From NCBI GenBank assembly GCA_963770565.1, contig CAVYQE010000011.1:256001-320000 (forward strand): 64,000 nt of DNA, given 5' to 3'. Below the pieces are notes generated by a model, which was given only the letters and a program-made list of their open reading frames with translations, had not been told where the DNA came from and searched no databases. This document shows, one piece after another, positions 46,306 to 61,102 of the stretch (within the stretch, counting starts at the first letter, position 1; each line of letters starts with the position of its first letter). A program made the position numbers and the translations under genes. This stretch comes from an uncultured Actinomycetota bacterium (GTDB taxonomy: Bacteria; Actinomycetota; Actinomycetes; JAFAQI01).

Positions 46306-47463
46306 CTACTTGCCGGCCGTCCACTTGTGGCCGTGCAAGGTGAAGGTCATCGCGTGGCCGCTGGTGTGGAAGTCGGGGTAGTGCGTGCCGACGGCGAAGA
46401 CGTGCTTGGCCGAGCTCGCGCTGATGGCGTAGATGTAGTTCAGGCCCTTGCCGTGCGTCACGTACTGCTTCGTCCACGCTCCACCCGACGTGTGCAGGAT
46501 GGCTGACACCTCGTAGTTCTTGGCGTTGCGCCACTGCGCGACCGCCCAGCCCTGCGTGCCGGCGACCGTCAGGTCGACGATGACCGCGGTCGACGGGACG
46601 CCCTTGATCGTGGCCTTCGACCACTTCTTGCCGTTGAACTTCATGATCGCCCGCTTGCCCGCAGCGTCCGTACCGGCGACGTAGACGAGGTGCGGCGAGC
46701 TGGTCGCGATTGGACCTGGGTACGTCACCGGTGCCGGGCCGAGGTCGGTCCAGCTCGACCCCTTCCACACCAACAGGTTGCCGTCTCCGCGGGTGGCCCA
46801 GGTGTTGTTCGGCGCCGAGGTGCTGGCGTCATTCTGCCCGTCGTAGTTCACACTCTGCGGCGTGTCGGTGAACGCCCACTTCTTGCCGTCGTAGTGCAGG
46901 GCCTGCGGGCCGCCGGTGTCTGTAGCGAGGTAGATCCCGCCCACGGCCCAGACGTTGCTCGGCGAGCTGGCGGTGATCGCGCCGACGCCGACGGCGCCGG
47001 ACGCGGTTCCGGGCAGCTTCATCGCCACGAACTTCTTGCCCTTCAACCGGAAGATCGCTGGCTTGTCATCGATGCCATGCGGGACCTGGACGGCCCCGCC
47101 GACATAGACGTTGTTCTTCGATACCGCGTCCACCGAGGCGAGGTTTCCGTAGCGGCCACCGAGCTTCGATGTCCACACTTTCGTGAGGTGGCCGTTGTGC
47201 AGGAGCATGATCGAGAACCTGTCGTTGTCCACCCCGAACCCGCGCGCTTCGACGACGTAGGCGTACGACGTGCCTGGCACCGCTGCGACGGCACGCAGGT
47301 CGGTGGTTGCCCCGTCCCTTCGGCTTCCTTGCTTCGGCAACTGGTGCTGGCGGGCGGTCATGCCTGGACGGTGTGGTGTCGCCCCGGCGTATCCGCCGGC
47401 GGCGAGCACGGACAGGATCGATGCGCCGATGGCGGCGCGCAGCACGGTCGAGCGTGTAGTCAT
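46306..47463 (-). CDS. Secreted beta-propeller-like hypothetical protein
   Basis: Signal peptide; repeated S.SNVWAVG...HYDG.KW blades. Confidence 0.75.
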   Translation of the reverse strand: MTTRSTVLRAAIGASILSVLAAGGYAGATPHRPGMTARQHQLPKQGSRRDGATTDLRAVAAVPGTSYAYVVEARGFGVDNDRFSIMLLHNGHLTKVWTSKLGGRYGNLASVDAVSKNNVYVGGAVQVPHGIDDKPAIFRLKGKKFVAMKLPGTASGAVGVGAITASSPSNVWAVGGIYLATDTGGPQALHYDGKKWAFTDTPQSVNYDGQNDASTSAPNNTWATRGDGNLLVWKGSSWTDLGPAPVTYPGPIATSSPHLVYVAGTDAAGKRAIMKFNGKKWSKATIKGVPSTAVIVDLTVAGTQGWAVAQWRNAKNYEVSAILHTSGGAWTKQYVTHGKGLNYIYAISASSAKHVFAVGTHYPDFHTSGHAMTFTLHGHKWTAGK

Positions 47464-47544
47464 GGATCTCCCCCCAGATTCCACGCGATCATTGCAGGGC
47501 AACCGACGGCTGTCTCGCGTTTGCCAGGTGTGACCTGCCGCTCG

Positions 47545-47588
47545 TGGAGCGGGCGACCGGGATCGAACCGGCATGGCCAGATTGGAAG
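47545..47588 (-). repeat. att core copy 1: 3' half of tRNA-Gly(TCC), including CCA
   Basis: Minus strand CTTCCAAtCTGGCCATGCCGGTTCGATCCCGGTCGCCCGCTCCA; one mismatch against the other copies; no 5' half. Confidence 0.9.
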
Positions 47589-47727
47589 CGGCAGTCGACG
47601 GGCTCACGGTGTGACCGTTGCGCTCGCGCGAATGGCACGAAGTGAACACGAAGTGAACAGGCTGGGGTACGTCTTTGGGTACGCCCACCTGCTTGCGGGG
47701 GTTGGCTCGAGATTTCAGCTGGCTAGG

Positions 47728-47748
47728 CGGTATCAACCTCGGTATCAT
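47728..47748 (+). promoter_or_regulatory. CGGTATCA direct repeats overlapping a TATCAT -10 box (TA operator)
   Basis: Two copies just upstream of the antitoxin ATG. Confidence 0.55.
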
Positions 47749-47755
47749 CGAGTAC

Positions 47756-47959
47756 ATGGCGATGACTCTTCGGTTGGACGATCAGGAGACTGATGCGCTG
47801 CGTCAGCAGGCAGAGAACGAGGGCCGCTCGATGCAGGAGATCGCGCGGCAGGCAGTTCGTGAGTATGTCGAGCGCACGAGCAAGCGTGCGTTGATCGACC
47901 GCGCGCTTGCCGAAGAGCTTCCGCGGTATGCCGAGGCACTTCGTCGGCTCGGAGAGTGA
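47756..47959 (+). CDS. RHH/CopG-family antitoxin
   Basis: MAMTLRLDD...EGRSMQEIARQAV; GTGA overlap with the toxin. Confidence 0.85.
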   Translation: MAMTLRLDDQETDALRQQAENEGRSMQEIARQAVREYVERTSKRALIDRALAEELPRYAEALRRLGE

Positions 47960-48363
47960 TCTACCTCGGCGTCGAGGACCTGCTGCACATTGCCGAAGAA
48001 GCACTCGGAAATGTCGAGGTTCGTGACATCGGCCTGCTCGAGTCCGCGGCCGCGAGACCCCAGGCCAGCGCGTTCGGCGAGGATGCGTACGCGACGATCC
48101 ACGAGAAGGCCGCGGCTCTCATTCACTCGATCGCCCGCAATCACGCGCTAGTCGACGGCAACAAGCGACTCGCGCTCGCCGGTGGCGCCACGTTTCTGTG
48201 GATCACCGGGCTGCGGCTGACACTTACCAATGGCGAGGCCTACGACTTCATCATCGCGATTGCCTCCGGCCAGCTCGACGACATCGGGAGCATCGCCGAC
48301 ACGCTTCGGCGCCAGACCGAGCCGCTGCCGCCGGTGGCGACAGGTCCGAAGGGTGAGCTCTGA
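47956..48363 (+). CDS. doc: Doc/Fic-family toxin
   Basis: VRD.GLLESA..RP, KAAAL..S...NHALVDGNKR. Confidence 0.92.
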   Translation: MIYLGVEDLLHIAEEALGNVEVRDIGLLESAAARPQASAFGEDAYATIHEKAAALIHSIARNHALVDGNKRLALAGGATFLWITGLRLTLTNGEAYDFIIAIASGQLDDIGSIADTLRRQTEPLPPVATGPKGEL

Positions 48364-48406
48364 TGTCAAAGAACAAGATCGATTGAGGACGCATGCACTT
48401 GGGTCA

Positions 48407-48448
48407 GAGCGGGCGACCGGGATCGAACCGGCATGGCCAGCTTGGAAG
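48407..48448 (-). repeat. att core copy 2: tRNA-Gly(TCC) 3' half
   Basis: GAGCGGGCGACCGGGATCGAACCGGCATGGCCAGCTTGGAAG; lacks the terminal CA. Confidence 0.9.
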
Positions 48449-48553
48449 CGAACGCAGGCTTTGTTGCTGACCAGCTGTGCGCGAGATCGCGCTGCCGGTC
48501 ATCGTCGAAGAGGCTCCTTCCCCGTCGAGTGAAGCCCCGAGTATGCCCGCGAT

Positions 48554-48620
48554 GGGGCACGAAGTGGACATGCCATCGGCGGCCCGTGGGGACGCTCGTG
48601 GGGACGCTCGTGGGGACGCC
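48554..48620. repeat. Left arm repeats of element 2: GGGCACGAAG plus 3x CGTGGGGACGCT
   Basis: 12-bp tandem repeats at 48585, 48597 and 48609. Confidence 0.8.
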
Positions 48621-48650
48621 TGTGACCGTCCGATGTCTCTGACAAGAGAT

Positions 48651-48712
48651 AATACTTCATCGAAGTCTCATACTTCACTCTTGCATTGAAGTATGACTTT
48701 GATTGAAGTATT
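48651..48712. promoter_or_regulatory. Long AT-rich imperfect inverted repeat (4x ATACTTCA), probable AbiEi operator
   Basis: AATACTTCA-TCGAAGTC-TCATACTTCA ... TGAAGTATGA-CTTTGAT-TGAAGTATT directly before the gene. Confidence 0.7.
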
Positions 48713-48720
48713 CTCGGACC

Positions 48721-49728
48721 ATGAGCGTGACCGGCCAGCGCGTTTTCGGCGTGCTTCGCTCCGTCCTGCCACCGGGCACTCCGATACGACATGCACAAGC
48801 GCAAGCTGCGGGTAATGAGGTTGCTCTCACGATCGCTGGACACAAACTTCGGATTCGGTGGCTTGCGGTCGGTTGGCCTCGACAGGTTGAGGAAGCGTTG
48901 CGGCTGCACCCGAAGCCTGATGTGGTCGTTGCGCCACGAATGTCGCCAGGCGCCCGAAGCGCGGCGGCAAGAGCGGGGCTCGGTTGGGCAGACGAGTCCG
49001 GGGCCGCCGAGATTCATCTGCACAACCTTGTCGTCTCGAGATCCGGTGATCCTGCGGTTCCACTCGATTCACGGGTCGGTTGGCGTCCGGCGACACTCGC
49101 GGTCTGTGAAGCCCTTCTGACTGGTCAGTCCACGGCGACAGTCTCGTCTGTCGTTGCGGCGACTGGACTCTCTGTGGGTACCGCCGCGAACTCTTTGAAG
49201 TTTCTTGAGAGGGATGGCTTTCTGGAAAGCGATGCAGCTAGAGGGCGGGAGTCGGCTCGCCGACTGACCGACCCAGACATGTTGCTCGATGCATATGCCG
49301 CGGCCGCGCAACGACTCCGATCGCCGACATCGATACGGGTCGGAGTGCTGTGGCGAGATCCGTTGGCCGGAGCCGCCGAGATAGGGCGCATATGGACGGG
49401 TGTCCGTCTCGCTTGGGCGGCGACAGGCGCACTGTCGGCCGCCGCAATCGCTCCCACACAAACTGAGGTGGCACCGATGGAGATATATGTCTCGGCGCGT
49501 GGACCGAGCGATCTACGGAACGCCGCTGCTCTTGCGGGGTTGTCCGAAATCGAAGGCGGTCGGCTCCTGGTGCGCCCCTTTCCAACGCCCGCTGAGGACA
49601 GCCTGACGACCGAACTCCCGGGCGGCGTCCGATCAATGCTGTGGCCTCGGGTATATGCGGACCTGCGCACGACAGGTGTCCGGGGCGAAGATGCTGCGGA
49701 GCACCTGCGCGAGGTGATGGCAGCATGA
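48721..49728 (+). CDS. AbiEi-like (type IV TA) antitoxin/regulator
   Basis: Central HTH, LLDAYA, A.TG..AA, VYADL..G.RGEDAAEHL C-terminus. Confidence 0.75.
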   Translation: MSVTGQRVFGVLRSVLPPGTPIRHAQAQAAGNEVALTIAGHKLRIRWLAVGWPRQVEEALRLHPKPDVVVAPRMSPGARSAAARAGLGWADESGAAEIHLHNLVVSRSGDPAVPLDSRVGWRPATLAVCEALLTGQSTATVSSVVAATGLSVGTAANSLKFLERDGFLESDAARGRESARRLTDPDMLLDAYAAAAQRLRSPTSIRVGVLWRDPLAGAAEIGRIWTGVRLAWAATGALSAAAIAPTQTEVAPMEIYVSARGPSDLRNAAALAGLSEIEGGRLLVRPFPTPAEDSLTTELPGGVRSMLWPRVYADLRTTGVRGEDAAEHLREVMAA

Positions 49729-50564
49729 CTGAGGCCGATGAGACGCGATCGCTTGCAGCGCGGGCGGCCGCCGAGCTTGCACTCGTACGTGTGGTTCATC
49801 ACTATGGGGGGCGCCCCGAGTTCGTCCTTCTTGGCGGGCTCGTTCCGGCGTTGCTCTGTGCCGGATCGCCACGACGCCATGCAGGCACGAACGACGTAGA
49901 TGTGCAGGTCAATCTTGAGATCGCCGGCGGCGCAGTTCATGCCGCACGTCTCGAACAAGCCTTGCGCAATGCCGAATTCGAGCCCGACTCCGACAGGACA
50001 TGGCGGTGGACGTTCGATCCGACGAAGGACGTGCGCGCCACGGTGAAGTTCGAGTTGCTCGCTGATCTTGAGACCGCGGCCGCTGGGTCAGTGATCAACT
50101 TCGCCGGGTGCGACTCCTTGGGAGCGGCCAACCTCCGAGGGACCGGCTACGCCACCCGCGATGTTCAAGTGCATCGAATCTCAGCCAATGACCACGGCAC
50201 CTTTCGACAAGTCGAGATCAACGTCGCGGGACTAGCTGGATTCCTTCTCGCGAAGACGGCTGCCGCTCATGGACGGCGCAAACCGAAGGATTGGTACGAC
50301 ATCGCCTTCGTGCTGCTTAACAACGACCACGGTGAGGCGCCTGCCGTTGCCGAACGAGTCCTCGAAGTGTTTGGGCCGCCGGCACCCGACCTACGTACTC
50401 AACTCGTGGACCTCAAAGCCAACTTCGAGACGCCTGACACCCAGGGCACGTCCGCGTACGTAGAGCAGATCACTCTCGACCATCCCGATGAGAATCCCTC
50501 CACGGCAGCTGCCGATGCGCAGCTTGCCGTCAGTGCCTTCGTCGGCATCTTGCTCGGGACGTAA
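49725..50564 (+). CDS. AbiEii-like nucleotidyltransferase toxin
   Basis: LLGGLVP...HAGTNDVD; K..A...R.KPKDWYDI; ATGA coupling. Confidence 0.8.
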   Translation: MTEADETRSLAARAAAELALVRVVHHYGGRPEFVLLGGLVPALLCAGSPRRHAGTNDVDVQVNLEIAGGAVHAARLEQALRNAEFEPDSDRTWRWTFDPTKDVRATVKFELLADLETAAAGSVINFAGCDSLGAANLRGTGYATRDVQVHRISANDHGTFRQVEINVAGLAGFLLAKTAAAHGRRKPKDWYDIAFVLLNNDHGEAPAVAERVLEVFGPPAPDLRTQLVDLKANFETPDTQGTSAYVEQITLDHPDENPSTAAADAQLAVSAFVGILLGT

Positions 50565-50701
50565 CATGCGTGCGCCGTCTGGCTCGCAGCGGCATCCCCA
50601 CACAAGATCAACAAGGCAGACACACTTAGCTCTACGAGCAACGCGTGTTGTCGCGGGCTACAGGTGACCAACCTCGCGGGGTCCCGTGCAGTCTCATTGG
50701 C

Positions 50702-51661
50702 ATGAGGCGCCCCCTGATGGGAATCCTGCTGGCTGGCTGCCTCGTGGCCTGCTCGAGCCAGACTGCTACCGGGCCGAGGAACGAGGATCGCACTTCGCCC
50801 GTGCGGTCGAGTGCGACCGACCCGTCTTTCGTTGCCTTCGAGCCCGGGCGACACGACCGGCTCTTGGTGGTCGACGCCGCGACGGGCCACGTGCAACGGA
50901 GCACGGAGGGACCGGGTTCGGAGGGCTATGCCATAGACCTCAAGTCGCACGTCGCGCTCCTGCCGGTTGTCTTGTCGAGTTGCCGGCTCGCGATAGAGCG
51001 GGTGCCGCTTTCGACTTCTAGCAGGGAGGGAGTCAAGCGTCGCGTAGGGATTGTCCGAGGCGGTCCGGTTGACGACGTAGAGGCGCAGCCCGCGCTGAGC
51101 CCGAGCGGCAAGAAACTGGCCGTCATCGTCGCCTCGCCTCCGTCGGTCAACTCGGGAATGGGGTCCGACTGCGGCGACACGGATCGAGTTGCGGTCGTCT
51201 CTCTTCCGGCAGGCACCGTGCGCTACGTGACAAGCCAGGCAGGTGACCAGCTCGACGACCTTGCCTGGGCCGGATCGCGGCTCCTGGTTCGAGTCACGTC
51301 GCCGACCCGTCCTGCAAGGGGCCGTGTCGTCGAGATCGGGAGCGAGACCGACAGCGTGGTGGCTTCCCCAACAGTGCTCATCGAGCGACGGGGACGACCA
51401 GGTCCGGTCTTTCGATGGGGGGCCGGCCTGGCGGTAGTCGATTCAGGCGGACTTCATCGTGTTGCACGCGGCCGTATCGCCGCGAAAGCGTTAGCGGGGA
51501 CCGTCGGGTTGCCCACCTTGGTTGTCCGAGTATCGGTCGCGGCAGATGGACGGGACCTCTTGCTGCAAACGAACGCGGGCGACCTCTATTGGTGGAACGG
51601 CGACTCGACAAGACAGATCCCAGTCACCGTTCCCGGGCACTGGGACGAGCCCGTTTGGTGA
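50702..51661 (+). CDS. Hypothetical lipoprotein (TolB/propeller-like)
   Basis: Lipobox LVAC; PALSPSGKKLAV repeat-like motif. Confidence 0.65.
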   Translation: MRRPLMGILLAGCLVACSSQTATGPRNEDRTSPVRSSATDPSFVAFEPGRHDRLLVVDAATGHVQRSTEGPGSEGYAIDLKSHVALLPVVLSSCRLAIERVPLSTSSREGVKRRVGIVRGGPVDDVEAQPALSPSGKKLAVIVASPPSVNSGMGSDCGDTDRVAVVSLPAGTVRYVTSQAGDQLDDLAWAGSRLLVRVTSPTRPARGRVVEIGSETDSVVASPTVLIERRGRPGPVFRWGAGLAVVDSGGLHRVARGRIAAKALAGTVGLPTLVVRVSVAADGRDLLLQTNAGDLYWWNGDSTRQIPVTVPGHWDEPVW

Positions 51662-51781
51662 CTCGGACCTCGGGGACGCTGGAGAGTTGCGCCGAAGGCA
51701 TCTGGCGTCTCGGCCGAGCTCTCGTCCGATTTCCTGTGAGGCTCACCCACGGCTAATGGACGAAGCGCCAGACCTTGGTTC

Positions 51782-52600
51782 TCAGGCGGTCCGGCGCGCG
51801 ACCCTGGAGTCTTCCTTTGTGAACACGCGAAGTTCCAGTGGCATGGCGGGATGGAAGTCGATTGGTCGAGCGAGGCGGGAGTCTGTCGCCATCCGGATGC
51901 CGTACAGGTTCGCGAAAACCAGCATGCGGCTCGTGTGCTCGTCCTGGTCGAGGATTTGGTAGGCGATGGAAGCAGAGACATTGTTCGGATCTGCCCGGCG
52001 AGCGATCGCGATGAATCCATCGCGAGGCTCGCCAAGTACAGCGGCACGCACGTGATTGAGCTTCGGGTCGTGCGCTCGCGTGGGATCGTCCCGCCACGCG
52101 CACTCAAGTGCCACCTTCAGAAGCGCACGCGAGATCTCGGATGCGTATCGGGGCGTGAGTCTGCGACCGCCGGTACCGGACCATTCGAGTCGTACTCGGC
52201 CATCTGGCAGCGTCTCAGTCTCTTGGATGATGCCCTGCGGACCGCCCGAGTCGAACCGGAGAGTCGGATCCTGGCCGCGAACTCCCGGAATGTGGGTCAT
52301 CGTGAAGCCGCTCATGCGGCTGACCGGGAGTCGTCCCGACTTGGAGGGGATGCCGAGCATCGTGCGCCTGAGGACAACCGCTGGGAAGTCGCAGAGCGCC
52401 GAATCGAGCTGTGACAGAACGGTGTTGTTGCACCGATCGCAAACGACGCCTGGAGGTAGGACGAGGTCCGTGTTGCCCAGCGACTCGGGGAAAACGTGTT
52501 CCCGGCTCAGAAATCCTCCGTCGTGCCCTCTGCAGAAGAGACACCGGCGCGAGCGGTTGCGCGCGCGACGTTGCGCACTTGAGGACCGGCTGCCGCTCAT
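51782..52600 (-). CDS. HNH endonuclease (HNH_5-like)
   Basis: CLFC...SREHVFPESLG...VCDRCNN. Confidence 0.85.
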   Translation of the reverse strand: MSGSRSSSAQRRARNRSRRCLFCRGHDGGFLSREHVFPESLGNTDLVLPPGVVCDRCNNTVLSQLDSALCDFPAVVLRRTMLGIPSKSGRLPVSRMSGFTMTHIPGVRGQDPTLRFDSGGPQGIIQETETLPDGRVRLEWSGTGGRRLTPRYASEISRALLKVALECAWRDDPTRAHDPKLNHVRAAVLGEPRDGFIAIARRADPNNVSASIAYQILDQDEHTSRMLVFANLYGIRMATDSRLARPIDFHPAMPLELRVFTKEDSRVARRTA

Positions 52601-52914
52601 TGATCAATCATCTCGTGAGTGCGCGCCCTCGGCTTGGATTTTCGGGGGCGCGCCCCGGCACCGCCGTAGCGTTGCCGGGCGGCTTGCCGGGTCACGCCGA
52701 GGGCTCGGGCGATCGTCGGCCAGCCGAAGCCCCTGACTGCGAGACGTTCGACCTCGGCGTCAATCTCTCGCTCGATGACCCTCCGTTGGTCGACGAGCCG
52801 GCGTAGCCGCGTCGTCGCCTCGTCCTCCGCCACTCGCTTCGGGTCCGGGCTGGTCCATCGCCGCATCACTTGCGAGCCGTGTTCACGGCTCCGGCGGCGC
52901 TGGCGTTTACCCAT
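52597..52914 (-). CDS. Small HTH DNA-binding protein
   Basis: G.GW..IARALGVTRQAARQRY; overlaps both int and the HNH gene. Confidence 0.75.
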   Translation of the reverse strand: MGKRQRRRSREHGSQVMRRWTSPDPKRVAEDEATTRLRRLVDQRRVIEREIDAEVERLAVRGFGWPTIARALGVTRQAARQRYGGAGARPRKSKPRARTHEMIDQ

Positions 52915-54049
52915 CGGCTGCCACCTGATCAGGTCGCGGCGGCAGGGGAGTGGGTGCGATGAGCTTGCTCATCGCCGCCGCGACGGCGAGGTCGCGGTCC
53001 TCGGTCGCGTGTTGATAGATCAGCGCGGCCCGTGAACTTGAGTGACCCATCCGATGCATGAGCTCGCGGGTTGTCGCGCCACTGACAGCCGCGAGGGTCG
53101 CGGCCAGGTGCCGGAGATCATGGAAGTGGTAGTCGGGCACGCCGGCTGCCCGGGTCGCTCGGCGCCACATCGTGTGGAAGTTGTTGCGGTCGAGTGAGAC
53201 TCCGGACGACTTGGTGAAGACCAGCGCGGTCGGGTCTGCGTCGACGTACGTCGAGAGGTGCGCTTCGATCTCTGGCCAAACATGCGGCGGGATCGCGACG
53301 GTCCGGCGACCGGCGGCGGACTTCGTCGGACCGATGTAGCGCTTGCCGCCCTTGAGCTGAATCATCGCTTCCTCCACGTGGATGACGCCGTGGAGCTGGT
53401 CGATCCGTTGACGCGAGAGCCCGGCTAGCTCACCCCATCGCAGCCCGGACCAGGCGGCCAGCAACACGAGCACCCGATATCGCGGCTCGATCGACTCGAC
53501 GATCAGGTCGACCTCGGCCAGTGACGGCGGTTTGCGTTCTGGTGTCCGCTCGACACCAGCGGCTCGAAGGCGGCAGGGGTTGCGCGGGATCAGGTCGTCC
53601 TCGGCCGCAGTCGCCAGGATCGCCTTGAGCAACCGATATGCCTTTGCCGCCGTCACCACGCCGACGCCGGTGTCTCGCAGCGAGGCGTTCCACGATCGCA
53701 CCGATGCCGAGGTGATCCGACCGAGGGTCGTCGAGCCGAACGTCGGGTAGATGTGCCGCCGCAGCAGGTACTCGTAGATCTCCGCCGTCCGCGGCTGAAG
53801 CTCGACGGGTCGCTCGACGAGCCACCGCGGTGCGTACTTGTCGAGCCGGATCTCACCCGCGTCCGGGTCGAGCCACGTCCCGCGCGCCAGGTCCGTCTCG
53901 ACTGTCGCCAGGTACCGCTCGGCCTCCGCCTCAGTCGCGAAGGTCGCCGGCGCCGAGCGCGACCGGCCGTCGCCGAGTGAATACCTCGCCTGGAACCGGC
54001 CGGACGGCAGCCGACGGATGCGGCCGAACCGGCGTCGCATCGCACTCAT
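52907..54049 (-). CDS. int: Tyrosine integrase (element 2)
   Basis: Arm-binding N-terminus RRFG.IRRLPSGRFQARY; GLRWGE, K, HDLRH, GH and Y catalytic residues. Confidence 0.96.
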   Translation of the reverse strand: MSAMRRRFGRIRRLPSGRFQARYSLGDGRSRSAPATFATEAEAERYLATVETDLARGTWLDPDAGEIRLDKYAPRWLVERPVELQPRTAEIYEYLLRRHIYPTFGSTTLGRITSASVRSWNASLRDTGVGVVTAAKAYRLLKAILATAAEDDLIPRNPCRLRAAGVERTPERKPPSLAEVDLIVESIEPRYRVLVLLAAWSGLRWGELAGLSRQRIDQLHGVIHVEEAMIQLKGGKRYIGPTKSAAGRRTVAIPPHVWPEIEAHLSTYVDADPTALVFTKSSGVSLDRNNFHTMWRRATRAAGVPDYHFHDLRHLAATLAAVSGATTRELMHRMGHSSSRAALIYQHATEDRDLAVAAAMSKLIAPTPLPPRPDQVAADG

Positions 54050-54070
54050 GGCGCAAAAGGTGGTCGTGTG

Positions 54071-54179
54071 GCGTCCCCATGAACGTCCCCACGAGCGTCA
54101 ACCCATGCCGTGGGGACGTTCATGGGGACGCTCGTGTGCCCTACAAAGACAGGGCACGAAGGGGCACGCGAGGGGCACG
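54071..54179. repeat. Right arm of element 2: perfect 23-bp inverted repeat plus 3x GGGCACG
   Basis: GCGTCCCCATGAACGTCCCCACG (54071-54093) / CGTGGGGACGTTCATGGGGACGC (54109-54131). Confidence 0.85.
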
Positions 54180-54238
54180 GCGTCTGCCGTCCGACAGATG
54201 GGCACAGGGTCAGCAACCGCCTGACCTGCGAATCCGCT

Positions 54239-54285
54239 TGGAGCGGGCGACCGGGATCGAACCGGCATGGCCAGCTTGGAAGGCT
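54239..54285 (-). repeat. att core copy 3: tRNA-Gly(TCC) 3' half, including CCA
   Basis: Minus strand AGCCTTCCAAGCTGGCCATGCCGGTTCGATCCCGGTCGCCCGCTCCA; no D-arm or acceptor 5' strand upstream. Confidence 0.9.
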
Positions 54286-54939: not shown

Positions 54940-56220
54940 TCAGCGAGCGTTTCGCCGAACCCGCGTGGCCGGGCTGGCGAGGTCGAAGAGCTGCCCTTGT
55001 CCTGGGCTCGTCGCTCGGGTGCCGGACTGTCTGCGAGCCGGCTCTTTGGCTTGCCGCTGTCGTGCTCGACCACTCGCTCGTTGCGGTCCGCGCGTCGTTG
55101 AGGCGCTAGCACTCTGAGCCTGCTCGACAAGACTCGAGAGGGCCTGGGCGATTGCGGCGTCTCGGTCACGGGTCGCGTGTTGGTAGCGAAGCGCTGCTTG
55201 GGGACTGGCGTGCCCCATCCGGACCATGAGTTCACGCAGGCTTGCCCCGGTCGCCGCCGCAAGGGTGTTGCCGGTGTGTCTGAGGTCGTGAAAGTGCAGA
55301 TGTGAGAGGCCGAGACCGCGGACGGCGGGATGCCAAACGTCGGTGGTGAAGTTGGACTTGCGGAGCACCCCGCCGTGAGGACCGACGAACACCAGACCGT
55401 CAGGGCCAGTCTGAGCAAAGCGGTCGAGGTGTGCGGTGATGTCCGGGATCACTGCCGCTGGGATCGTCACGGTGCGTCGCCCTGCTTCGGACTTCGGTGG
55501 CCCGATGTGGCGTTTGCTACCGACCAAGTCGGATGCTGATGCGCGGACCGTCACGGTTCCACTCTCGATGTCGATGTCTCGTCGGGTGAGTGCGGCGAGT
55601 TCGCCGATCCGAAGCGAGCAAAATGCGGCGAGCAGGACCAGTGCACGCCAGCGCTCACCGATCACACCCGCGATCGCGAGGACCTGGGGGAGCGTCGCGG
55701 TCGGGCGCTCCGGGCTGAACTCTTGCCCTGCGCCCGGAATCACGCATGGGTTGCGGGGAATCTCTTCGTCGTGCACGGCACTGCCACAGATGGTGTGCAG
55801 CAGCCGGTAGCACTTGGCGGTGGTGACTGCACCAGGGCCGTGGGACGAGGCGAGACGGGCATGCCACTCGCGGATCACGGCGGTGCTGAGTTGCCGAAGT
55901 TGCAGGCGGCCGAGCGACGGGAGGATGTGGCTGTCGAGTTGCTGCTGATACAGCTCGACCGTCCGTGGAGCGAGGGGCCGGCCTCGGACCTTCCGGGTCT
56001 TTAGCCACGTCGTGGCGTAGTCCCGAAGCAGGACACGCCCGGAGGCTGGGTCGAACCAATCTCCGCGGTCCAGGTCCGCACGGATGCCAGCGAGGAACCG
56101 GGCGGCGTCGGCGCGGGTGGCGAACATCCGCCCGTGCACCCGGCCGTTCGGGTCGCGGTACCGCGCCTGCCAGCGCCCGTTCTCACGGCGGCGGATGCTA
56201 CCGAAGTCGCGTCGAGCCAT
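54940..56220 (-). CDS. int: Tyrosine integrase (element 3)
   Basis: RRDFGSIRRR..GRWQARY; SLRIGE, K, HDLRH, GH, Y. Confidence 0.96.
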   Translation of the reverse strand: MARRDFGSIRRRENGRWQARYRDPNGRVHGRMFATRADAARFLAGIRADLDRGDWFDPASGRVLLRDYATTWLKTRKVRGRPLAPRTVELYQQQLDSHILPSLGRLQLRQLSTAVIREWHARLASSHGPGAVTTAKCYRLLHTICGSAVHDEEIPRNPCVIPGAGQEFSPERPTATLPQVLAIAGVIGERWRALVLLAAFCSLRIGELAALTRRDIDIESGTVTVRASASDLVGSKRHIGPPKSEAGRRTVTIPAAVIPDITAHLDRFAQTGPDGLVFVGPHGGVLRKSNFTTDVWHPAVRGLGLSHLHFHDLRHTGNTLAAATGASLRELMVRMGHASPQAALRYQHATRDRDAAIAQALSSLVEQAQSASASTTRGPQRASGRARQRQAKEPARRQSGTRATSPGQGQLFDLASPATRVRRNAR

Positions 56221-58144: not shown

Positions 58145-58348
58145 GCGGGTTCTCGGGACGCGACACGCCCGACCGCGGGCAAATTTCTCAACTCGTCCAC
58201 TCCAGGCCGACCGTCCTCACCGCCATCGTCCCTCGAAATCCCTTGACTACCAACATTTCCCGCCACGCCCACGCCACCTGATCGGCCCGCCTACCCCGCC
58301 CCACAATGCCGGCAGACATGTGCATTGGCAATGCATACGGTGTCGCTC
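58145..58348. other. Candidate oriT/promoter region
   Basis: Non-coding stretch upstream of the relaxase with short inverted repeats (GCCCG..CGGGC, TGCATTG-G-CAATGCA). Confidence 0.4.
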
Positions 58349-61102
58349 GTGTTGTCGACGTCGAAGGTCGGGACCGCGTCGTGGCGGTACTACTCGAACC
58401 AGGTGCAGCGCGGGGCGTGCGAGTACTACCTCGGCGTCGGTGAGGCGCCGGGTCGCTGGCAGGGCCGTGGCCTCGACGCGCTCGGGCTCGACCCGAAGGC
58501 GGTCGTGGCGGAGCGTGAGCTGGAGGCGCTGTTCGGCCGCGCCCTGCACCCCAAGTCCCGTCAACGGCTGGGCCAGGCGTGGCGCGCCGACGGGGTGACT
58601 GGCTACGACTTGTGTTTCTCGGCACCGAAGTCGGTCAGCGCCCTGTGGGCGATCGGCGAGGGCAGCGTCCCCGCCGAGGTGATGGCCGCGCACCGCACCG
58701 CCGTCCGCACCGCGCTGGACTACCTGGACAGCCACGCATCCTTCTCCCGGGTTGGCACCAACGGACACACCCAGGTGAGCACGGACGGGTTCGCCGCCGC
58801 AGTGTTCGGTCATCGGACGTCGCGGGCGGGGGACCCGCAGATCCACTCCCATGCGCTGGTGGTGAACAAGCTCCGCTGCGCCGACGGTGGCTGGCGCACG
58901 ATCGACGGGCATGAGATCTACGCGCACAAGAAGTCCGCCGGCACGGTGTATCAGGCCGTGTTGCGCAACGAGCTGACCCGCCGCCTGAACGTGTCATGGG
59001 CGGCGGTGTCGAAGGACGGGCAGGCCGAGATCGCCGGCATGCCGACGGAGCTGATCAAGGCCTGGTCGAAACGGGCGATACAGCTGACCGCGGAGGCCGC
59101 CCCGGTCATCGCCGCCTACGAGTCAGAGCTCGGGCGGTCGCTGTCCTCAGCGGAACGCACCGCCGTGTGCAAGGTCGCGGTGCTGAAGACGAGACCGGGG
59201 AAGGACTCGGTCGACATCGTGGCGCTCTCCGACCGGTGGCAGGCCGAGGCCGCCGAGTTGGGCTGGGACGGGCTGGGGGTGCAGCGCGAGATCGGGAGGG
59301 CTGGCCGGCCACCACAACCAACCGCTGCCCTGGTCGAACAGATGGACCGTGCCGTCGTCGAGGCGGTCCGCGCGGCCGGGGCACGGCGAGCGGTGTTCTC
59401 CCGCTCCGACCTGGCGGCCGAGGTCGCGACCCGGCTGCCGAGTGGCGGGTTCGACGCGAACCTGGCCCGGACCCTCATCGAGCAGCTCGCCGACCAAGCA
59501 CTGAGCACACCCGACGCGGTCACGCTGCGCCCGCAGATCGAGGGATGCCACCGCGGCTCCGACGCCCGCTACGCCTCCCGATCCACCTTGGATGCGGAGC
59601 TGCGGATCCTCGGGGTCGCCGATGTCGGCCGCGCTCGGGGTGTGGCAGTTCTTGACCCGCGAGAGGTCCGGACGATCGCGCGCCGCCGCGGGCTGGACAC
59701 CTCGCAGCGGGCCGCGCTCGTCCAGGTCGCCACGAGCGGGGATGTGGTCTCGGTGCTGGTCGCGCCGGCCGGGGCCGGGAAGACCACCGCGCTCGGCGCC
59801 GCGGTCTACGCGTGGCGCGCCGCCGGATACCGGATCGTCGCGCTCGCGCCGTCTGCCCGGGCCGCCGCCGAACTACGGGATGCGACGTTCGCCCCGGCCG
59901 ACACGGTCGCGAAGTTCCTGCACGAACACCACCAACCACCGAGCCCGTTCGTTCTCGAGACCGGTCGGTACCGGCTGCATCCGGGAACAGTGGTGATCGT
60001 CGACGAAGCCTCCATGCTCGCCACCACCGACCTCGACGCCTTGACCCACGCGACGTGGGAGGCGGGAGCGAAGCTGCTGCTGGTCGGTGACCCCGCGCAG
60101 ATCGGTGCCGTCGACGCGGCCGGCGGGATGCTCCCCGCCCTCGCCCAACGCCTGGACGCGCCGACGTTGGACACGGTGCACCGGTTCACTGCAGCGTGGG
60201 AACGCGACGCATCCCTACGACTCCGCCGCGGTGACCCGACCGTCATCGACGACTACATCGCGGCCGGTCGGGTCCACCACTGCCCCAATGACACCGCGGC
60301 GTATCAGGCCGTCCTCGACAGCTACCTCGACGCGAGCATGGCCGGGCGTCGGGTGTTGATGCTCGCCCGGACCCACCACGACGTCGACACCCTCAACACC
60401 CTCGTCCGCGCGCACGCGATCGACACCGGGCAGGTTCACGGGCCCGTACTCGTCGAAGGGCAGGTGGAGTGGCGGGCTGGGGACCGGCTCCGCGCCACCC
60501 GCAACAACCGCAGCATCACCGTCGGCGAGGACTACCTGCGCAACGGCGACCAGTTCATTGTCCTCGGCGCTGAACGCGGCGGACTTCTTGTCCAGACCCT
60601 CGACGGCGGCCGGGCCGCCACGCTGCCCGCCGACTATGTGATCGCGCACACCACGTACGGGTGGGCGTCGACCATCGACGCCGCGCAAGGCGCCACCGTC
60701 GATGACGCGGTCCTGCTTGCCCGACCCGGTATCGACCGCGAACACCTTTACGTCGGTCTCACCCGCGGGCGGAATGAGAATCACGTGGTCGTCGCCCAAC
60801 CCACCAGCGACAACGATCACCACGGCCTACCGAAAGCCGGGGTGCCGCGGGAGGCCAGAGCAATGCTTGCCGACGCGCTCAATGCCAGCGGCGTCCAGAA
60901 AGCCGCCCACACCCGGCTACCCGAGCACCTCCAAATCGAGCCGGGCACAAAGCCAGTACCAGCTCGGCCCATGGTCCGACGGCCCAGACCGGCACGAGCG
61001 CTGCTCCGACCGATCGAACGACCAGGGCTCAGGCGCGAACTCAAGGACCAATGCCACCCGCTCTCCCGCGACCACGGACGCGACATGGGGCGCGGCCGAT
61101 AA
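58349..61102 (+). CDS. MobF (TrwC-type) relaxase fused to an SF1 helicase
   Basis: YY...YY, DLCFSAPKSVS, HRTSRAGDPQIHSH; APAGAGKT, DEASM, GD..Q, AQGAT, YVGLTRGR. Confidence 0.95.
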   Translation: MLSTSKVGTASWRYYSNQVQRGACEYYLGVGEAPGRWQGRGLDALGLDPKAVVAERELEALFGRALHPKSRQRLGQAWRADGVTGYDLCFSAPKSVSALWAIGEGSVPAEVMAAHRTAVRTALDYLDSHASFSRVGTNGHTQVSTDGFAAAVFGHRTSRAGDPQIHSHALVVNKLRCADGGWRTIDGHEIYAHKKSAGTVYQAVLRNELTRRLNVSWAAVSKDGQAEIAGMPTELIKAWSKRAIQLTAEAAPVIAAYESELGRSLSSAERTAVCKVAVLKTRPGKDSVDIVALSDRWQAEAAELGWDGLGVQREIGRAGRPPQPTAALVEQMDRAVVEAVRAAGARRAVFSRSDLAAEVATRLPSGGFDANLARTLIEQLADQALSTPDAVTLRPQIEGCHRGSDARYASRSTLDAELRILGVADVGRARGVAVLDPREVRTIARRRGLDTSQRAALVQVATSGDVVSVLVAPAGAGKTTALGAAVYAWRAAGYRIVALAPSARAAAELRDATFAPADTVAKFLHEHHQPPSPFVLETGRYRLHPGTVVIVDEASMLATTDLDALTHATWEAGAKLLLVGDPAQIGAVDAAGGMLPALAQRLDAPTLDTVHRFTAAWERDASLRLRRGDPTVIDDYIAAGRVHHCPNDTAAYQAVLDSYLDASMAGRRVLMLARTHHDVDTLNTLVRAHAIDTGQVHGPVLVEGQVEWRAGDRLRATRNNRSITVGEDYLRNGDQFIVLGAERGGLLVQTLDGGRAATLPADYVIAHTTYGWASTIDAAQGATVDDAVLLARPGIDREHLYVGLTRGRNENHVVVAQPTSDNDHHGLPKAGVPREARAMLADALNASGVQKAAHTRLPEHLQIEPGTKPVPARPMVRRPRPARALLRPIERPGLRRELKDQCHPLSRDHGRDMGRGR

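Follow-up and report, generated by a model that had tools for sequence, protein, structure and literature searches.

A toxin-antitoxin pair between two tRNA-Gly attachment cores, probably a decayed remnant of a small integrative island in an uncultured soil actinobacterium

In a 64-kb stretch of DNA from an uncultured soil actinobacterium (G000:C11:256001-320000, on a 1.03-Mb contig of a 95%-complete assembly; this whole stretch is called the window below), two copies of a tRNA-derived attachment (att) core enclose only a ribbon-helix-helix (RHH) antitoxin gene and a Doc toxin gene. The question raised by this unit, designated E1 (47545-48451), is whether such a short, integrase-less segment represents a new type of mobile cassette or the residue of something larger. 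Our comparisons favored the second answer, to which we assign a probability of roughly 80%: E1 would be a decayed derivative of a small island at tRNA-Gly(TCC), resembling a cis-mobilizable element (CIME). The features of E1 are as follows.

47545..47589, minus strand: core 1, a 45-nt copy of the tRNA-Gly(TCC) 3' half and the outermost att site of the array
47590..47635, plus strand: spacer between core 1 and the arm repeats
47636..47658, plus strand: CACGAAGTGAAC, the motif that marks the integrase-distal arm in this island family, in two copies with an 11-bp period
47665..47683, plus strand: GGGTACG-N5-GGGTACG, arm-type repeats at a 12-bp period
47729..47747, plus strand: GGTATCA-N5-GGTATCA direct repeat, just upstream of the antitoxin gene
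47756..47959, plus strand: RHH (CopG-type) antitoxin (RHH_1, Pfam E 8.9e-7), 67 aa from the ATG shared with its homologues (MAMTLRLDD...)
47956..48363, plus strand: Doc (Fic/Doc family) toxin (PF02661, E 1.5e-13, 51.8 bits against a cut-off of 24), 135 aa
48364..48406, plus strand: core 2 junction, the 43 bp that follow the Doc stop codon (ending at 48363), without arm repeats
48407..48451, minus strand: core 2, the att site common to E1 and E2, the next island in the array

All remaining open reading frames (ORFs) of E1 overlap the RHH and Doc genes, in a different frame or on the opposite strand. In its fold the antitoxin is RHH rather than Phd/YefM, and it is encoded by a small DNA-binding gene lying directly upstream of the toxin gene, with the GTG start of doc overlapping the antitoxin stop codon (GTGA at 47956-47959). 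Residues H63-A-L-V-D-G-N-K-R71 of the toxin fit the Doc-type active-site motif, H-x-F-x-[DN]-[AG]-N-K-R, with L replacing F. With the Fic/Doc domain, the motif and the overlapping upstream antitoxin all present, RHH-Doc is a predicted type II toxin-antitoxin (TA) pair. The GGTATCA-N5-GGTATCA repeat ahead of the RHH gene was kept in E1 and in its two larger relatives described below, G004-A and L148-Y, and may serve as the TA operator. Consensus scans of 47450-48700 for promoters and terminators returned none, a result that is uninformative for a high-GC actinobacterium.

The 34-nt core GAGCGGGCGACCGGGATCGAACCGGCATGGCCAG had exactly three occurrences in the window (47547, 48407 and 54241), against zero expected from 100 shuffles; the repeats reach about 45 nt and are spaced by 860 and 5834 bp. 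In reverse complement, the cores match tRNA-Gly(TCC) over its 3' half, which spans the anticodon loop through the acceptor end. Within the window, no tRNA was detected by ARAGORN, and a whole-genome scan placed the intact tRNA-Gly(tcc) at G000:C11 c[320763,320834], 763 bp past the window end and beside a tRNA-Pro gene. The three 45-nt cores and the intact tRNA just outside the window thus delimit an array of three elements in the order flank, core 1, E1 (860 bp), core 2, E2 (5.8 kb), core 3, E3 (approximately 10.5 kb) and tRNA-Gly. Core 1 differs from cores 2 and 3 by a single mismatch (A at 47581) and is identical to core 2 at 44 of 45 positions. The 3' half of the intact tRNA differs from the three cores at four positions, including a compensatory T-stem pair, which indicates that it was supplied by the element now adjoining it (E3).

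The left end of E1 has the appearance of a bona fide distal arm. In the window, CACGAAGTGAAC-type sequences (one mismatch or fewer) were found only three times, as CACGAAGTGAAC at 47636 and 47647 and as CACGAAGTGGAC at 48558 (0.77 expected; 3 of 100 shuffles reached three), and CACGAAGTGRAC was likewise confined to 47636 and 47647 in E1 and 48558 in E2. The pattern GGGKACG-N5-GGGKACG gave six matches against 0.40 expected, a number reached in none of 100 shuffles, and five of the six lie in the arms of E1 and E2 (47665, 48588, 48600, 54072 on the minus strand, and 54112). The strongest indication that the E1 repeats exceed chance is their conservation, since the distal-arm motifs align in the same order in eight elements from six sources (E1 and seven others; alignment A1). 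An earlier note on this DNA had described the RHH-Doc pair between two cores, the CACGAAGTGAAC and GGGTACG repeats with their 11- and 12-bp periods, the same order and 12-bp period with GGGGACG at the left end of E2, and the lack of right-arm repeats; all of these observations held, the first with the 860-bp core spacing and the Pfam matches, the last in the 43 bp between the Doc stop and core 2.

Att cores were searched in 36 family genomes and then in 38 genomes of the order, and the flanks of every core were compared. This revealed a family of small (~3.7-10.6 kb) tyrosine-integrase islands at tRNA-Gly(TCC) in uncultured soil Mycobacteriales, with TA and defense genes as cargo (AbiE, MazEF, Phd-ParE, Doc, PIN-DUF433, GmrSD, TIR, caspase). 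The TIR genes noted in a cargo survey of L135, L158, L155, L038 and L039 were of CAP12/Pycsar-type and ThsB-like kinds. On the distal side, the islands show a core, a spacer of ~105-110 nt, CACGAAGTGAAC and two to three GGGGACG copies at a 12-bp period; on the proximal side, counted from the int start codon, they show two CGTCCCC, two GGGGACG, two to three GGGCACG, a GGTCAG...CTGACC hairpin and the core. We infer that these repeats are putative arm-type sites of the integrase, and the assignment of individual motifs to integrase or excisionase is tentative. A loosened arm pattern matched 44 metagenome loci, seven of which had a tRNA-Gly core 108-112 nt upstream in the same orientation; these seven true family arms were all of the GGGGACG type, and the other 37 of the 44 were chance matches without a core. 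Compared with this layout, E1 lacks the proximal arm, and its distal arm departs from the norm in two ways: the heptamers read GGGTACG instead of GGGGACG, and the spacer between 47588, where the 42-nt core match ends, and the first CACGAAGTG is 47 nt long, about 60 nt less than in its relatives (108-112 nt in the seven metagenome arms, ~105-110 nt in the family genomes).

Two larger elements carry relatives of the E1 pair, likewise toward their distal end. Metagenome locus L148 holds two elements, X and Y, and L148-Y consists of a core, a distal arm, one ORF, RHH-Doc, another ORF, an excisionase-like gene and an integrase 84% identical to that of E2; its RHH and Doc proteins share 80% and 72% amino acid identity with those of E1, and the DNA is 75% identical over 603 nt (47729-48330 of the window). 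In G004-A, from another genus, a core is followed by a distal arm with three GGCACG copies and GGTTACG/GGTACG, a second RHH-type pair, RHH-Doc (75% and 70% identical to the E1 proteins), ORFs of unknown function, an excisionase-like stretch, an integrase split between two frames, and a core. Of the 11 elements with a readable distal end, six (E2, G004-A, G010, G015, L155 and L148-Y) have a TA or Abi pair as one of the two cassettes nearest the distal arm; in the other five, unknown or defense genes take this position.

A parallel case was found in genome G017, from another genus (g8). Two of the 11 core-to-core intervals listed for the 38 genomes of the order were below 1 kb, that of E1 (860 bp) and one of 920 bp in G017 (G017-u1), with only Phd and ParE between its cores. 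This unit is 79.3% identical over 784 nt to the distal end (Phd-ParE, arm, spacer, core) of a 4.9-kb integrase-bearing element in G010, and its other end is 93% identical to the tRNA and proximal junction of the same element; the end-to-end alignment identifies it as an internal-deletion derivative. The TA pairs of E1 and G017-u1 are unrelated, each matching the distal end of a different larger element. Beside the Phd-ParE unit (L025, G017:C5, 6330-6500) lies an 'empty' unit in which a distal arm (CACGAAGTGAAC, three GGGTACG copies) is fused directly to the same 95-nt proximal junction; genes and an outer core are both absent. Decay was also apparent elsewhere in the family: L135 has an integrase cut after ~45 aa and keeps both arms with GmrSD and TIR cargo, a left-side remnant in G015 retains only integrase residues 14-165, and the integrases of G004-A and G004-B are split between frames.

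These comparisons are consistent with the following history. The 3' half of tRNA-Gly(TCC) would have received a parent island, inserted by a tyrosine integrase of the heterobivalent (lambda-type) class and made up, in this order, of a core, a distal arm (CACGAAGTGAAC, GGGTACG repeats), RHH-Doc, further cargo, an excisionase-like gene, the integrase gene, a proximal arm and a second core. An internal deletion reaching from the 3' end of doc to ~15-40 bp short of the tRNA-side core would then have left both cores, the distal arm and the TA pair, and E2 (AbiE cargo) and E3 (TrwC relaxase) would later have come between E1 and the tRNA. The DNA homology of E1 doc to its relatives stops at 48330, 33 nt before the stop codon, and the last 11 codons have no homologue there, so that the left breakpoint may fall in the last codons of doc. 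At the other side, only the last ~13 nt of the junction (TGCACTTGGGTCA) resemble the integrase-proximal junctions of relatives (L148-X, G017). The TA pair may have survived because post-segregational toxicity would select against its loss by deletion. Without an integrase or a proximal arm, and with an arm type that accompanies an integrase variant not found in G000, E1 probably cannot move by itself. The earlier note had offered, as one of two readings and with a preference for a trapped remnant, a collapsed relative kept by TA addiction; L148-Y, G004-A and the G017/G010 pair bear out the remnant part, and the addiction part is suggested by the recurrence of TA pairs as last survivors, a tendency that the empty unit of G017 shows not to be absolute. 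Its alternative outcome, that relatives would reveal E1 as simply the end of a larger island, proved correct in the evolutionary sense and incorrect physically, as E1 is a separate unit with two complete cores.

Several points weigh against this history. The exact E1 arm pattern (CACGAAGTGAAC-N6-GGGTACG-N6-GGTACG) had no match in the metagenome contigs, and we found no full-length element combining a GGGTACG-type distal arm with RHH-Doc; the arms of L148-Y are of the GGGGACG type and its integrase is cut by the contig end, and the G004-A integrase is frameshifted. Among 80 Doc-homologue loci in genome contigs, compared together with flanks reaching at most 8 kb, none had a tRNA-Gly(TCC) core and one had a weak integrase match. 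RHH-Doc pairs of this type are thus mostly not island-borne, and the TA genes could have been captured independently rather than inherited from an island ancestor. Both arm-repeat pairs of E1 are perfect and cores 1 and 2 are only 1 nt apart, which fits a recent event, but also selection for a site still in use. The empty unit of G017 demonstrates that TA genes can also be lost. No relative of 48331-48393 was detectable (for 48320-48406, blastn-short and tblastx against all fetched loci and the genome gave chance-level matches only), and the deletion ends very near core 2. Finally, most comparators are metagenome-assembled genomes, in which frameshifts and repeat junctions may be assembly errors. 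In sponge-associated Acidimicrobiia assemblies (L104, L107, L121, L126 and L086), RHH-Doc pairs ~47% identical to that of E1 occupied a conserved slot between tRNA-Cys and tRNA-Gly(GCC).

The alternatives differ mainly in how E1 relates to its neighbors, which carry the following features.

48452..54238: E2 island, 5.8 kb
48558 and 48588-48618: E2 distal arm, with CACGAAGTGGAC at 48558 and three GGGGACG copies at 48588-48618
48703-49728: E2 AbiEi-like gene
49641-50564: E2 AbiEii gene
50645-51661: E2 ORF of unknown function
51782-52600, minus strand: E2 HNH gene
52597-52914, minus strand: E2 excisionase-like ORF
52907-54049, minus strand: E2 tyrosine integrase
54060-54238: E2 proximal arm
54239..54282, minus strand: core 3, the att site separating E2 and E3
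54940-56220, minus strand: E3 integrase, different from that of E2 (47% identical)
58325-61102: E3 TrwC relaxase

E3 is an integrative mobilizable element of ~10.5 kb that runs from 54283 to the intact tRNA-Gly at window coordinate 64834.

One alternative, which is compatible with an origin by deletion and adds a present mobile life, is that E1 is mobilized in cis: the integrase and excisionase of E2 would recombine core 1, next to the E1 distal arm, with core 3, next to the E2 proximal arm, so that E1 and E2 leave and re-integrate as a 6.7-kb composite. The complete core and intact distal arm of E1 have the position and orientation that a composite attP requires, E1 shares CACGAAGTGRAC with E2, and its heptamers differ from those of E2 by one base; cis-mobilization of CIMEs in tandem with integrative and conjugative elements (ICEs) is documented (PMC6323972, PMC5704250). 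We nevertheless consider this unlikely, given the short spacer and the identity of the heptamers. All copies in E1 and in both G017 units are GGGTACG, whereas the homologous G010 arm has GGGGACG, which indicates a concerted difference rather than random decay. Moreover, the 19 nt at 47667-47685 (GTACGTCTTTGGGTACGCC) are 100% identical, in reverse complement, to proximal-arm repeats of L148-X, whose integrase is of the FGAV type and 77% identical to that of E2; in G023, of the same genus, four AGTACG copies lie beside an integrase 79% identical to that of E2.

Across the family, the heptamer type followed the N-terminal domain of the integrase. In 7 of 7 elements with GGGGACG arms (E2, G010, G015, G003, G004-B, G037 and L135), the integrase has FGR[IV]...SGRFQ (SSRFQ in L135), and in 3 of 3 with GTACG-type ((G/A)GTACG) arms (L148-X, G023 and G004-A), it has FGAV...SGR[YW]Q. 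A mixed case, G140, combines FGRI and RYQ with a proximal arm of three GGGGACG-type sites and one GGGTACG, which makes some cross-recognition by an FGRI integrase such as that of E2 conceivable. This covariation suggests that an Arg/Ala switch in the N-domain reads heptamer position 4 (G or T); it is a lead rather than proof, since the elements compared are few and some of them share descent. The 95%-complete G000 assembly yielded no FGAV-type integrase: the best match to the L148-X integrase was that of E2, all others were at most 50% identical, and the only G000 integrase more than 50% identical to those of the island family was E2's own. Integrase homologues were present in 82 of 401 genomes of the class (E <= 1e-60); those below ~65% identity lie behind a helix-turn-helix excisionase gene and not beside tRNA-Gly, and they added nothing to the comparison of arms and N-domains. 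Three genomes were flagged as unpublished, and their loci were left out of the class-wide arm/N-domain and junction-origin comparisons; none of our conclusions draws on them. At G000:C11:533678-535335, a split integrase homologue in two pieces (34-36% identical to the E2 integrase) was observed, with one pair each of GGGTACG-N5-GGGTACG and GGGGACG-N5-GGGGACG a few hundred base pairs away. As to actual movement, the Logan contigs of four soil runs contained no flank-E3, flank-tRNA or E2-E1 joint, at a low depth that leaves rare events invisible. Because one att site has lost its arm, even cis-mobilization of E1 is doubtful.

A more speculative extension, which we hold to be rather improbable, regards TA-only mini-islands (E1, G017-u1) as selected hitchhikers instead of inert scars and links them to an integrase recognition code. 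A core with one arm could let a newly landed, related island carry the remnant off as a composite, and the TA pair could thereby spread and keep a spare landing site at the tRNA. In such a code, Arg (FGR) would possibly read GGGGACG and Ala (FGA) GGGTACG, and, if true, it would decide which neighbor picks up which remnant.

The earlier note had also proposed that E1 is a non-autonomous satellite cassette, moved alone and in trans by the integrase of E2. This idea, which would make E1 an analogue of an integron cassette or a miniature inverted-repeat transposable element, draws some support from the fact that sub-kilobase TA-only units between tRNA-Gly cores turned up twice in 38 genomes of the order, both with perfect arm repeats. 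It has become very unlikely for any resident integrase: the proximal arm is missing, with only 43 bp between doc and core 2; the E1 heptamers are GGGTACG and those of E2 GGGGACG; the FGAV-type integrase was not found in G000; and neither E1 nor its arm type appeared elsewhere in the metagenome contigs. The unrelated TA pairs of E1 and G017-u1, matching different larger elements, fit independent deletions and not one spreading cassette.

That RHH-Doc is an old chromosomal neighbor of tRNA-Gly, with core 1 and the repeats as unrelated debris, is highly improbable. The left flank in G025, of the same genus, is 89% identical to that of G000, and the homology ends exactly at 47545, the first base of core 1. 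It is followed in G025 by 1.68 kb, a core and then E3, 99.9% identical up to the tRNA, and this tRNA-Gly locus has neither E1 nor E2, nor the TA pair. E1 is thus an insertion and not ancestral chromosome, and an ancestral chromosomal TA pair was rejected; the 99.9% identity of E3, against only 89% for the flank, points to a recent transfer of E3. Core 1, 44/45 identical to core 2, is succeeded by a family distal arm, and the core 2 junction ends in ...GGTCA|GAGCGGG, as element-derived proximal junctions do, and not in the TGG (CCA) of core 1. On the other side, a Doc fragment and an intact tRNA-Gly are separated by 194 bp in G035, of another genus, and the 7 kb to the left of the fragment contain no second core. 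This fragment (L026, G035:C4, 6759-7049) is the C-terminal part of Doc, 34 aa at 47% identity, and the gap to the tRNA 3' end contains three CAAGCAATGTSRCATTGCT copies, two continuing as ...GTCACATTGCT and one as ...GTGGCATTGCT; the locus is probably another decayed element. The 1.68-kb segment that G025 has where G000 has E1 and E2 (L034, G025:C72, 370-2046) carries a gene for a 498-aa secreted protein and may be native or another remnant.

Nine soil and peat runs hold parts of the window. The idea that the tandem cores result from misassembly at a repeated tRNA sequence is scarcely credible, for although the cores exceed common k-mer lengths and the Logan contigs break there, none bridging 47554-47606, the E1 interior was covered without any difference in the four soil runs (three samples, two studies), single contigs span the transitions flank to core 1 (47394-47553), doc through core 2 (48111-48448) and core 2 to E2 (48440-48662), and the window lies on a 1.03-Mb contig. 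E2 was uncovered in two runs of one sample in which the flank, E1 and E3 were covered, which is not readable as absence of E2. One 356-nt contig runs from doc through core 2 into 18 nt of the tRNA-Gly 5' half; it hints at a strain in which E1 adjoins the intact tRNA, may be a chimera formed via shared tRNA k-mers, and was not used as evidence.

Among known systems, the decayed-island reading of E1 comes closest to the CIMEs related to ICESt1 and ICESt3 of Streptococcus thermophilus. Published accounts (PMC5704250, PMC6323972) define a CIME and outline a three-step path of integration, decay to an att-flanked element without integration genes, and accretion at an att site. Like a CIME, E1 is flanked by direct core repeats (44/45 identical), has no integration or transfer genes between them, probably arose by deletion from a larger integrase-bearing element (L148-Y and G004-A, with the parallel of G017-u1 and G010), and stands in tandem with related and unrelated integrating elements at a tRNA 3' end. 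Unlike the parents of CIMEs, those of the E1 family are islands of 3.7-10.6 kb that have an integrase and an excisionase-like gene but are not ICEs, since no genes for conjugation or a relaxase are recognized in them. E1 itself resides in an uncultured soil actinobacterium, is far smaller (0.86 kb) and has lost its proximal arm, so that one att site may be crippled. TA modules are reported to stabilize genomic islands in other hosts, such as sgiAT of SGI1 and HipAB of a Shewanella composite island (cf. PMC5704250, PMC8978831). Like these, E1 has a type II TA pair within an integrating island, and addiction is likely the reason that the pair outlives the rest; those modules maintain whole functional islands, whereas little besides the TA pair remains of E1.

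Integron TA gene cassettes and ccr-less pseudo-SCC elements are likewise short, recombinase-less units bounded by recombination sites that occur in arrays and sometimes carry TA genes, and E1 resembles them in all these respects. The sites of E1, unlike those of an integron cassette, are a tRNA-derived core with lambda-type arm repeats, and its origin would be by deletion. An integron-like cassette was rejected, as no attC-like structure was seen, in a comparison that included no attC-specific search, and the neighboring integrases are phage-type enzymes with SAM-like N-domains. The family att sites have the organization of a lambda-type heterobivalent attP: the core overlaps the tRNA 3' half, heptamers about one helical turn apart occur on both arms, inverted pairs adjoin int, and a small excisionase-like gene lies beside int; the arm sites are putative binding sites.

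E1 alone is an ordinary decay product, and its main value is to close the question from which we started. Two by-products reach further. One is a family of very small islands at tRNA-Gly(TCC), not annotated before, with TA and defense cargo and a clear att architecture; the other is the covariation of heptamer position 4 (G/T) with one N-domain residue pair, which yields a testable hypothesis of an arm-specificity switch in heterobivalent integrases. That TA pairs recur as the final cargo of independent deletion derivatives may, in addition, offer a small natural illustration of TA-driven retention.

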